DNA of 64,000 bases from Escherichia coli (GTDB lineage: Bacteria; Pseudomonadota; Gammaproteobacteria; Enterobacterales; Enterobacteriaceae), in assembly GCF_001677475.2 (NCBI RefSeq), contig NZ_CP015229.1, one strand, 5' to 3'. The notes under the pieces were generated by a model. The model was given only the letters and a program-made list of their open reading frames with translations. It did not search any database and was not told the DNA's origin. Position numbers and translations under genes: made by a program. Shown here piece by piece: positions 57,613 through 64,000 of this stretch; the stretch's first letter is position 1, and every line of letters starts with the position of its first letter.

Positions 57613-57906
57613 TTATTGATTATCAACAGGAAGAAAAGAAACCAAACGCAACCCATCCAAATCCACCGGAATACGTCTATTTTCACCCCAGGTCTGAAAT
57701 TCAAAACCTGACTCGGTATTGGTCGCCCAAGCCATCACTACATTTCCGCAACCTGCCAGTTGAGAGATTTGCTGCCAGATCATCTCCCGAATACGTTTGG
57801 ATGTATCTCCGACATACACACCGGCACGCACTTCCAATAGCCAGATAGCGAGCCGTCCACGTAAACGTGGAGGAACATTTTCCGTTACAACTACGATCAT
57901 ACTCAT
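57613..57906 (-). CDS. cas2: CRISPR adaptation endonuclease Cas2
   Basis: 97 aa [37 protein letters not shown]; ATG overlaps cas1 stop; adjacent to the leader. Confidence 0.95.
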
Positions 57907-58826
57907 CCGCCGCGTCCTCGATGACCGCTATCGCCCAACGTTTCAGGTTCGGGGATGGCTGGCGGTAACATATCCGGCGCGGGTTGTGGTGGTTCAATTT
58001 CACCTGCGGCAAGCACTTCCTCAATTAACGGAATTAATTTGCCCGTTAACTTAGAGCTACGGAAAATATCGCGACAAGCCAACCTGACTTCTTTATCAGG
58101 TTCTGCGGGTTGCCTCGCCGCTATTTCAAATGCCTTTGGTACAACCGAATCAAATTTAATGATATCGGCTATGTCGTAAACAAATGAAAGCGGTTTGCCA
58201 CTATGGATAAAACCAATAGCGGGCGCATATCCCGCAGCTAATACTGCCGCTTCAGAAATACCGTACAGGCATGATGTGGCAGCACTGATGCAGCGATTGA
58301 CAACATCGCCTTTTTCCCAGTCTTTAGGATCGTATTTGCGACCATTCCATTTCACACCATATTGTTTCGCCAGTAATGCATAGGTCTGGCGAACGCGGGA
58401 TCCCTCAATTCCCCGTAGCTGCTCCACTGAACGGCGAGCTGGCGGTGGCTCACGAAAACGTAATTCATACATTTTGCGCACCACCTTCAGGCGTAGATCT
58501 TCCGTTAAAGCCAGCATTGCCTGGTAGAGTAACTTATCAGCACGCGCCCCACCGGGTTGTCCGGAAGAGTAGACGCGAACACCCGCTTCACCGACCCAGA
58601 CCAGTAGCGTCCCCACCGTGGCGGCCAGATGGACTGCCGCGTGGGAAACTCTTGTTCCCGGTTCGAGCATAATGCAGGCGACCGATCCCACTGGAATATG
58701 CGTGCGGATCCCTGTTTTGTCGATCAGCACGAAAGCGCCGTCCAGTACGTCGATTTGACCGTACTGGAGGAAGATCATGGAAGTGCGATCTTTTAATGGG
58801 ATCGGGCTCAGCGGTACAAACCTCAC
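57903..58826 (-). CDS. cas1: CRISPR adaptation integrase Cas1
   Basis: Cas1 core ([18 protein letters not shown]...). Start set to GTG at 58824-58826, where the alignment to E. coli Cas1 as recalled begins and the overlap with cas6e is only 4 nt; the track's TTG start at 58862 is the alternative. Confidence 0.88.
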
Positions 58827-59473
58827 GCCTCTGCTCCGGGTTTGATCAGCATCAGACCACAACCGAACGCCCGGCTTTTGCCATACCCCTGACTGAGACG
58901 TTGCAGAAATAACCCAGGATCGGTGACCGTAAGCATCCCCGTATAATCCACGCTACTGAACTGGATCAGTTGCCGGGAGTTTTCCCGCCGCAGTTGCTGT
59001 TGTCGGTAGGCATCAACCGAAGTATCCAGCAGTGTAAAACCGCTTCTCTCCCCCTGCGCTGCCAGCCAGTTCAGCGCAGCCTGTTGTTGATGCAACCAGA
59101 CATCACTTCCTTCCACCGGCCCCCTCACCTGCCGTTTCGCCTCCATCAGCAAGTCGTGGCGTTTGCCCGCTTTACAAATTGTTGGATTCGCCCGCAGGTT
59201 GAAACAAAGGGATTGTCCGGTACGCAACTCTGGCGCAAATGGTCGGCATTCGATGGTGAAAATATCACTTTCCGCCGGGCGTTCCTGCGACAGGACAAAA
59301 AAGCGAAACGCCCCCTGGAGTTCTTCCCGACGATAAAGAAATTGCCTTTCTTTGCCGCCAGGAAAAAGATCCCACAGCCACTGATGCATTACATATTCAC
59401 CGCGATCCACCAAATGCAGCAACTGCGCAGGCGAAAGCTGGCCGGTATGTAATGTTATTCTTGAGAGGTACAT
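58823..59473 (-). CDS. cas6e: crRNA endoribonuclease Cas6e (CasE/Cse3)
   Basis: Start at ATG 59471-59473 (MYLSRITLH, matching the conserved MYLS N-terminus); glycine-rich C-terminal loop GCGLMLIKP. The track start at 59611 overlaps cas5. Confidence 0.9.
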   Translation of the reverse strand: MYLSRITLHTGQLSPAQLLHLVDRGEYVMHQWLWDLFPGGKERQFLYRREELQGAFRFFVLSQERPAESDIFTIECRPFAPELRTGQSLCFNLRANPTICKAGKRHDLLMEAKRQVRGPVEGSDVWLHQQQAALNWLAAQGERSGFTLLDTSVDAYRQQQLRRENSRQLIQFSSVDYTGMLTVTDPGLFLQRLSQGYGKSRAFGCGLMLIKPGAEA

Positions 59474-60201
59474 GGTTCCTCCTTGCTGAGCCACGGCCCC
59501 TGATTGATGGTGCGTTCCCCAAACAGCCACTGCTGACGATTTAAAGGAACATCCCGGCGACGTAATATTTTGCTCGCGACCAGGCCGTCGTGTTCCCCTT
59601 CCCACCAGCATTCATCCTGAAGTTTCGGGAGTGAGACTTTCAGTTCGCGGAAACTATCCTGATACTGTTGGTATGCGTTACGTAAGACATCAGACGCGTT
59701 GCCTTCGAGCAGTAACGGCGCAAGTGGTAACGCCAGCGGATGACTTTTTCGCCCCAGATAAAGCGGAAAAACCGGATGACGTAAACCGTCCTGCAACTGT
59801 TCAAGGCTGTAAGGCGCATCGGGGGTTGTTGCCACCGCCACCATCCACCAGGCATCGGTGTAGTAGTCGCGCCGGGAGATAATCGCGCTCAGAAGATCAG
59901 GGGCGCTCAACTCTTCGCGACGGCTGAAATAACGCGCTTTACGCACCTCTTTTGGCATCTGGACCGTGTGATAATCCCGTGCCCAGCGCGGGTTACGGCT
60001 GGCGCAAACCACCAGTGAATAGTGGCGGTTAAACGCGTTTAATCGTTCGGTATCATCACGCCGAATCCCTACCCCGGCAGCCAGCAGCCCCAGCAATGCT
60101 GAGCGCGAAGGCAGTTCATGGGTATGACGCACTTCGCCGGGGGCATCGACGCCCCAGGATGCCATTGGCCCATGAAGCTGAAAAATCAAATATTGGCTCA
60201 T
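59455..60201 (-). CDS. cas5: Cascade subunit Cas5 (CasD)
   Basis: 248 aa ORF MSQYLIFQLHGPMASWG, conserved Cas5e N-terminus. Confidence 0.9.
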   Translation of the reverse strand: MSQYLIFQLHGPMASWGVDAPGEVRHTHELPSRSALLGLLAAGVGIRRDDTERLNAFNRHYSLVVCASRNPRWARDYHTVQMPKEVRKARYFSRREELSAPDLLSAIISRRDYYTDAWWMVAVATTPDAPYSLEQLQDGLRHPVFPLYLGRKSHPLALPLAPLLLEGNASDVLRNAYQQYQDSFRELKVSLPKLQDECWWEGEHDGLVASKILRRRDVPLNRQQWLFGERTINQGPWLSKEEPCTSQE

Positions 60202-60211
60202 TAGCCGCCCC

Positions 60212-63377: not shown

Positions 63378-63752
63378 ACGCTTTCCTCGCAAATAAGACC
63401 ATCCATGGTAGGTTGTCCATCACCATATTCAAGAATCAATCGAAAAGAGAGATTACATCATATTAAATGAATATATTGAAAATTAGATTATTATTAAATA
63501 ATCAATAAATCACACGAATATATAAAGATAATTTTCTATAATGCTTTTCGCTCAGGCTCTATCACTTAATAAAAACCAAAGTATTCTTTATCAAAAGGTT
63601 TTTCAACTCTGCTTCCGGACATTGTTACATATATCAATAACTCTTAGAGATTTTCTTTATTTCGAATAACCCTTATTTTTGATATAAACGTCTTCAGTTC
63701 CCTGTCTAAGGGATTAACCAAGTTAGTGATACACGTATATCATTTTATGCTC
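63378..63752 (-). promoter_or_regulatory. AT-rich cse1 upstream region (cas operon promoter region)
   Basis: About 375 bp of very AT-rich DNA between the cas3 end and the cse1 start, as expected for the cas operon promoter region. Confidence 0.7.
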
Positions 63753-63781
63753 CTGTTCCCCGCGTCAGCGGGGATAAGCCC
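63753..63781 (+). repeat. Solitary degenerate CRISPR repeat-like hairpin, inverted relative to the array
   Basis: Plus strand ctgttccccgcgtcagcggggataagccc matches the crRNA-sense repeat gtgttccccgcgccagcggggataaaccg at 25 of 29 positions with the CCCCGC/GCGGGG stem preserved. Confidence 0.85.
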
Positions 63782-63807
63782 TGGCGTCATCCGACTCCAG
63801 GGCATCT

Positions 63808-64000
63808 CAATCAACCTTACCAATCAATCCCTCCGTAGCCGAATACCCGCAACTTTCGTCATCGGTAACTAAAATCACATTTGCCATCTCCGGATCTTGC
63901 CGCTGTTCAACGCACCACTGCCTGAACGCATCCCCTTCCAGTAAAGAAAACTCATCGCGATGTTTTTTCCACCAGCTTCGACGCACTCTGACAACGCTCA
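63808..64000 (-). CDS. cas3: Cas3 helicase-nuclease, C-terminal end (gene starts beyond window end)
   Basis: Open minus-strand frame ending at the stop at 63808-63810 (...EGLIGKVD*), located upstream of cse1 as in type I-E loci. Assignment is by position; only 64 codons are visible. Confidence 0.6.

Follow-up and report, generated by a model that had tools for sequence, protein, structure and literature searches.

Positions 57613 to 64000 of the 64,000-nt stretch of Escherichia coli DNA that we analyzed (contig NZ_CP015229.1; the whole stretch is called the window below) can be assigned with confidence to a type I-E CRISPR-cas locus that looks intact, belongs to cas-E1, the majority variant, and sits at the usual iap-cysH site; its cas3-cse1 intergenic region is a long allele holding a CreR-type mini-array. 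The locus and the two-variant split of E. coli I-E loci are already known, and the rare CreR-like intergenic allele is a modest addition. By its architecture, the mini-array is a new allele of a known regulatory kind, the CreR type. From the comparisons set out below, we lean slightly toward its being a functional CreR-type autoregulatory guide in this Escherichia lineage.

The first sign of the mini-array appeared when the cas3 tail was translated and repeat-like peptides were found past the stop. Two repeat-like sequences, PsiR1 and PsiR2, enclose a spacer-like guide, PsiS (Table 1); their starts are exactly 61 nt apart and 32 nt lie between them. The last 8 nt of PsiR1, ATTAACCA, are the counterpart of the 5' handle ATAAACCG. 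On the minus strand, PsiR1 reads TGGTTAATCCCTTAGACAGGGAACTG (63720-63695), with a stem 3 nt shorter, and PsiR2 reads GGGCTTATCCCCGCTGACGCGGGGAACAG (63781-63753). The mini-array is inverted relative to the main CRISPR array, so that the CRISPR RNA (crRNA) sense runs along the plus strand and is antisense to cas3. The two PsiR elements each fold as a hairpin, and the 103-nt stretch gave a folding energy of -32.6 kcal/mol with a z-score of -3.25.

The guide has a predicted target elsewhere in this intergenic region; it is flanked by a protospacer-adjacent motif (PAM), and about 265 nt separate it from the downstream ATG of cse1. Guide and target match at positions 1-5, 7-11, 13, and 15-17, and the mismatches at positions 6 and 12 fall on positions that do not pair in Cascade. 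A match of this quality was reached by 0 of 2000 shuffles of the region. In the mechanism that these features suggest, a transcript antisense to cas3 would give rise to a crRNA-like guide, whose seed would pair with the AAG-flanked site upstream of cse1; the pairing would be adequate for Cascade binding and inadequate for cutting by Cas3, and Cascade would thereby dampen its own expression. If this holds, the expression of Cascade in this lineage would limit itself and respond to anti-CRISPRs or to the load of crRNA, unlike in the bulk of E. coli.

Table 1. Positions of the mini-array, the cas genes, and adjoining features, numbered on the window
Feature	Positions	Strand	Remarks
cas3-cse1 intergenic region	63378-63806		429 nt; 34.3% GC; AT-rich
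PsiR1	63695-63720	+	Degenerate, repeat-like; shortened 5-bp hairpin; CAGTTCCCTGTCTAAGGGATTAACCA
PsiS guide	63721-63752	+	32 nt; spacer-like; AGTTAGTGATACACGTATATCATTTTATGCTC
PsiR2	63753-63781	+	CTGTTCCCCGCGTCAGCGGGGATAAGCCC; matches the repeat at 25 of 29 positions; hairpin intact; 25 nt past the cas3 stop
Predicted guide target	63611-63645	-	PAM AAG at 63645-63643; protospacer 63642-63611 (AGTTATTGATATATGTA...); cas-sense strand
cas3, 3' end	63807-64000	-	194 nt; last 64 codons, ending ...ATEGLIGKVD and stop; gene runs past the window end
cse1/casA (cas8e)	61815-63377	-	520 aa; ATG at 63377; TIGR02547, 605 bits (cut-off 70), residues 7-509
cse2/casB (Cas11e)	61282-61818	-	178 aa; TIGR02548, 105 bits (cut-off 28.5)
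cas7 (cas7e)	60212-61267	-	351 aa; TIGR01869, 448 bits
cas5 (cas5e)	59455-60201	-	248 aa; TIGR01868, 159.6 bits
cas6e	58823-59473	-	216 aa; TIGR01907, 286 bits
cas1 (cas1e)	57903-58826	-	307 aa from GTG; TIGR03638, 379.5 bits (cut-off 216)
cas2 (cas2e)	57613-57906	-	97 aa; TIGR01873, 132.5 bits (cut-off 33)
Leader	57517-57612	-	AT-rich, 25.8% GC; separates the first repeat from the cas2 stop; 68% identity to that of K-12
CRISPR array	56817-57516	-	CRISPR2.1 position, iap to cas2; 12 repeats; read from the cas2 side
iap	55759-56796	+	Between cysD and the array
cysN, cysD		-	Precede iap

CreR was named by Liu et al. (2023; bioRxiv 10.1101/2023.03.10.532045), who reported that the type I-E CreR of Salmonella enterica represses the casA promoter via Cascade, and a 2026 preprint describes phage mimics of the Salmonella element. 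Shmakov et al. (2023; bioRxiv 10.1101/2023.03.03.530964) reported that about 19% of bacterial I-E loci have mini-arrays, most of which lie in long cas3-cas8 regions, are transcribed in the direction opposite to cas3, and have partial targets with an AAG flank. As a control, our search was run on S. Senftenberg NCTC10384, where it recovered the guide as published: starting with TAG, matching over 15 consecutive nt, with an AAG PAM, 141 nt upstream of casA. The window shares with Salmonella CreR two repeat-like sequences around a guide in the cas3-casA region, with their sense on the strand opposite to that of casA. The hairpin of the 3' handle is retained in PsiR2 and the greater part of the 5' handle in PsiR1, and a PAM-flanked site that matches the guide seed lies between casA and the mini-array. 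Unlike in Salmonella, the match is split into blocks of 5, 5, 1, and 3 nt rather than 15 consecutive nt, and the target is on the cas-sense strand, at about 265 nt upstream of cse1 instead of 141 nt. Transcription, Cas-dependent processing, and repression of cas genes through Cascade have been demonstrated for the Salmonella element and would be predictions for the allele in the window. We also considered that the long region might be homologous to that of Salmonella, and rejected this: the two regions share an architecture, but neither the guide nor the target is related in sequence to its Salmonella counterpart, and cas3 is divergent in the two Salmonella loci fetched. The corresponding region of K-12 (414 nt, AT-rich) holds an inverted repeat in degenerate form, together with a partial match that has an AAG flank and is weaker, being reached by 15 of 1000 shuffles.

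Among 5426 complete E. coli genomes, to which all genome counts given here refer, the allele of the window is shared by two, GF43 (99.3% identity) and N3 (98.5%), and the remaining matches fall into at least three other long-region alleles of 449 to 465 nt. In GF43 and N3, guide and target pair at positions 1-5, 7-11, and 13-17 (a 5+5+5 pattern), with mismatches exactly at 6, 12, and 18. Guide positions 7-11 read TGATA in one allele and TGAGA in another, positions 13-17 read ACGTA, ACTAA, or ACAAA, and the targets change likewise: strains 135 and ECNB21-M121 (TGAGA at 7-11, ACTAA or ACAAA at 13-17) have matching ATG-flanked targets of their own. TUM14771 and Klebsiella spallanzanii carry unrelated guides (GCAGTAAGAGG... 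and GTAATTAAGGC...), and each guide has a match of its own, flanked by AAG or ATG and located on the other strand. There are five independent alleles, each with a different guide that matches a PAM-flanked target in its own intergenic region. Should the functional reading be right, the nonhomologous alleles (guides AGTTAG..., GCAGTA..., and GTAATT...) would mark repeated exchange or turnover of the module, independent of the cas genes.

Several observations weigh against a functional element. Compared with GF43 and N3, the target in the window has an additional mismatch, at position 14 (63629 is T in the window and C in the other two), which falls in the third 5-nt segment of the guide-target pairing; any repression may be weaker in this strain as a result. 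PsiR1 has degenerated heavily and lacks 3 nt, and with its stem shortened, cleavage of PsiR1 by Cas6e is only putative. A promoter scan of the cas3-cse1 region returned two promoter-like hits, a chance-level number, with none over the target, and thus placed neither the cse1 promoter nor that of the mini-array; a terminator scan of the same region found none. The gap between cas3 and casA is 97 nt, and the mini-array is absent, in all four typical E1 loci inspected (O157:H7, O104:H4, MRSN346647, and 1916D18), and a sensitive search with positions 63400-63800 matched any part of the region in just 16 of the 5426 genomes; the element is evidently dispensable. The degeneracy of PsiR1, the rarity of the region, and the position-14 mismatch would suit a reading in which the inverted repeats after cas3 are what is left, without function, of a decayed array or of a scar from recombination, with guide and target matching only incidentally, and stand-alone repeats do arise sporadically in I-E loci (Shmakov et al., bioRxiv 10.1101/2023.03.03.530964). 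We regard such a relic as unlikely. It is at odds with the shuffle tests, in which six loci had a PAM-flanked seed match that 0 of 2000 shuffles reached and a seventh had one reached by 1 of 2000, with the placement of the mismatches at positions 6, 12, and 18, and with the covariation of guide and target at positions 7-11 and 13-17 among alleles, and with an architecture identical to that of the experimentally validated Salmonella CreR. We therefore retain a CreR-type regulatory guide as the favored, if tentative, interpretation.

With Cas7, 64 loci were fetched, one genome per species, for direct fuzzy repeat searches. An open reading frame (ORF)-walking script for intergenic lengths in the 64 loci was discarded as too crude, since it took longest-ORF starts and missed cas3 genes running off the locus. 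In the 59 loci that could be scanned, repeat-like sequences were present upstream of cse1 in 22, and in 20 of these 22 the sense of the element was on the strand opposite to the cas genes. Two arrangements in other loci differ from that of the window. In the allele of TUM14771 and K. spallanzanii, the mini-array target is followed downstream by a conserved ORF of 32 codons (MEEKTSRCKRLFCRLMVRFGKRLSVSFQLSVN and MEEKPNRYKRLFCRLMIRLGNKLSVSFQLSVR). The window lacks this ORF, whose product could be a small protein controlled by the guide in the manner of CreT-type systems. In a locus of S. enterica subsp. houtenae, cas3 is divergent from casA and the 1.3-kb gap between them (7653-8975 of that locus) contains a RelE/Xre toxin-antitoxin pair together with a mini-array that has its own AAG-flanked partial target.

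The Cascade genes next to the mini-array are clearly not those of K-12. The earlier note, made from the sequence alone, had described Cse1, Cse2, Cas7, Cas5, and Cas6e as different from their K-12 counterparts and Cas1 and Cas2 as close, and had stated that this would be contradicted if the Cascade subunits shared more than 95% identity with those of K-12. Against the proteins of K-12 MG1655, identity was 24.1% for Cse1, about 27% for Cse2 (barely alignable, with 48 columns aligned only), 32.6% for Cas7, 35.0% for Cas5, and 31.2% for Cas6e, so the difference is borne out and a K-12-type locus can be rejected at 24 to 35% identity. For Cas1 (84.3%) and Cas2 (86.2%), the claimed closeness survives at the protein level and fails for the DNA, which is 71.8% identical for cas1 and 73.6% for cas2. 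Since the adjacent cysN and cysD are 97.0% and 98.2% identical to K-12, cas1 and cas2 are best described, from their DNA, as old homologues of the K-12 genes with no shared allele. Similarity to K-12 DNA is detectable up to about 20 nt from the cas1 start and then ends. On these identities, the Cascade genes are a different, anciently diverged set relative to K-12, and Cas1, Cas2, the repeat, and the leader are homologues that show moderate conservation. The two loci have the same subtype, gene order, and chromosomal site, and their repeats are 1 base apart; the K-12 system (cas-E2; CasABCDE, PDB 4QYZ, 4TVX, and 5H9F) differs in that its Cascade DNA cannot be aligned with that of the window, in its junction details, and in subunit length, which in K-12 and the window, respectively, is 502 and 520 residues for Cse1, 160 and 178 for Cse2, 224 and 248 for Cas5, and 199 and 216 for Cas6e.

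The two-variant pattern that the earlier note invoked is documented in the literature as the cas-E1/cas-E2 split (Almendros et al., 2014; PMC3903273). In that work, the major cas-E1 cluster groups with Salmonella and Escherichia albertii and has a mean GC content of 53.5%, and the minor cas-E2 cluster, which includes K-12 and Escherichia fergusonii, has 45.6%; the authors concluded that K-12 holds a replacement cas set. Two I-E sequence variants were also reported in a 2025 survey of urological isolates (PMC12736100). The GC content of cas2-cse1 in the window is 51.8%, versus 46.0% for cas2-casA of K-12. When the Cascade genes (cas6e-cse1) were matched as DNA at a coverage of at least 80%, E1-type genes were found in 2428 of the 5426 genomes, including O157:H7, O55:H7, and O104:H4 strains, at 90 to 98.9% identity to the window, and K-12-type genes in a separate 1121. 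The best match is 98.9% over the Cascade genes, with none higher. The 194-nt cas3 tail can be aligned with the cas3 of E1 genomes; the primer site of the published PCR marker lies beyond the window. Given the low Cascade identity to K-12, the GC content, and the match to 2428 genomes, the operon is, by sequence type, the cas-E1 (majority) variant.

Within that variant, the locus of the window agrees with typical E1 loci (those of O157:H7, O104:H4, and most E. coli that carry cas genes) in gene order, chromosomal site, repeat, the ATGA and 19-nt overlaps, and the gene lengths given by the NCBI Prokaryotic Genome Annotation Pipeline (PGAP). It differs in the cas3-cse1 region, which is 429 nt with the mini-array as against the 97 nt of the four E1 loci inspected, and at the N terminus of Cse1, which reads MEFFSIIT instead of the usual MNSFSLLT. 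The MEFFSIIT start (63348-63377) travels with the long intergenic allele in GF43 and N3, and this co-occurrence suggests that recombination had a boundary within the ~30 nt at the start of cse1.

Assignment of the cas genes was based on curated NCBIfam type I-E models with their curated cut-offs. All seven Cas proteins encoded in the window matched over their full length and scored several-fold above them, with E values from 3e-30 to 1e-181, and none of the seven genes from cas2 to cse1 has an internal stop. The length of cse1, 1563 nt in the PGAP annotation of related genomes, agrees with that in the window. The order cysN-cysD-iap-array-cas2...cse1-cas3 is common to K-12 and five other E. 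coli genomes. The array consists of 11 perfect, partly palindromic 29-nt repeats (CGGTTTATCCCCGCTGGCGCGGGGAACAC on the plus strand) and one degenerate terminal repeat beside iap, with 11 spacers of 32 nt and a period of 61 nt; the number of repeat copies expected by chance is 0. From membership in these families, standard type I-E biology would apply: the array would be transcribed from the leader, Cas6e would cleave each repeat, Cse1, Cse2, Cas7, Cas5, and Cas6e would assemble with the crRNA into Cascade, Cascade would locate PAM-flanked DNA and recruit Cas3 for degradation, and Cas1-Cas2 would add new spacers beside the leader.

Other results count against reading the locus as a working immune system. 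The window end cuts cas3 and leaves 194 nt of it, so the interference module is seen only in part, although homologous loci have a 2700-nt cas3 at this position. No protospacer for the array spacers was found in 50,697 phage or 72,556 plasmid records; the matches returned by this search were other CRISPR arrays and misfiled chromosomal records, hit via their repeats. E. coli I-E systems are generally silenced by H-NS under laboratory conditions. Decay occurs in the lineage: in GF43, the closest relative, a stop codon interrupts cas7e (7713-8768 of the GF43 locus), and cas3 of TUM14771 is frameshifted. It is possible, then, that the locus is an inactive relic, its genes intact-looking and conferring no immunity, and that neither the junctions nor the variant type has present functional meaning. 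We consider this doubtful, as the seven open, full-length cas genes with strong model scores, the perfect conservation of 11 array repeats, and the retention of gene overlaps and Shine-Dalgarno sequences all speak for the intact-looking locus described above. An Rfam scan of the whole window (1-64000) at gathering thresholds gave no match, CRISPR repeats included.

The compact gene junctions described in the earlier note are present as stated. The cas2 ATG overlaps the cas1 stop, and the cse2 ATG the cse1 stop, each in an ATGA, and cas5 and cas6e overlap by 19 nt (59455-59473), with the cas6e ATG at 59473 preceded just upstream by AAGGAGG. These 4-nt and 19-nt overlaps fit translational coupling in one operon. 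The cas1 start had been called ambiguous between GTG at 58826 and TTG at 58862. Both codons exist, and the TTG is the first start codon of the open frame; initiation there would give a Cas1 of 319 aa with 12 extra N-terminal residues, which we judge very improbable. A Shine-Dalgarno sequence is absent before the TTG, whereas GGAG precedes the GTG; from the GTG, the N terminus is collinear with that of K-12 Cas1 and of equal length, and the Cas1e model match begins at residue 8. PGAP chose the equivalent of the GTG in all five related genomes inspected, and this start produces a GTGA overlap at the cas6e/cas1 junction, in keeping with the style of coupling at the other junctions. From the PGAP usage, the K-12-like N-terminal length, and the GGAG, the cas1 start is best placed at GTG 58826, short of proteomic proof, and the ambiguity is resolved to that extent.

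Cas7 is the sole Cascade subunit with a close solved relative, PDB 9UER chain E (82.9% identity), for which a literature search found no paper. The best PDB matches of Cse1, Cas5, and Cas6e are K-12 Cascade and are weak (E = 1e-14 to 4e-11), and that of Cse2 is Thermus 2ZCA, also weak (E = 2e-4). The K-12 Cascade is the minority form in E. coli, and what has been learned from it about structure and mechanism may not hold for the majority form. CreR-like elements are present in some E1 loci (16 of 5426 genomes, in at least four alleles) and missing from others, and this natural within-species comparison could be used to ask if RNA-guided autorepression alters how costly or how inducible CRISPR immunity is in E. 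coli.

The flanking DNA bears on the source of the window. The core genes from mutS to iap (33000-56800, 24 kb) share no more than 97.8% identity with any of the 5426 genomes; their matches all lie at 95 to 99% identity, bar one weak match (60 to 80%) to a plasmid record. From this ceiling on the identity of the flank, the source looks like an under-sampled Escherichia lineage. Within the same flank, genes for the subunits of a nonoxidative hydroxyarylic acid decarboxylase, which K-12 presumably lacks, lie between ygbN and rpoS (43042-45062); the stretch from mutS to rpoS is known to be polymorphic in E. coli.

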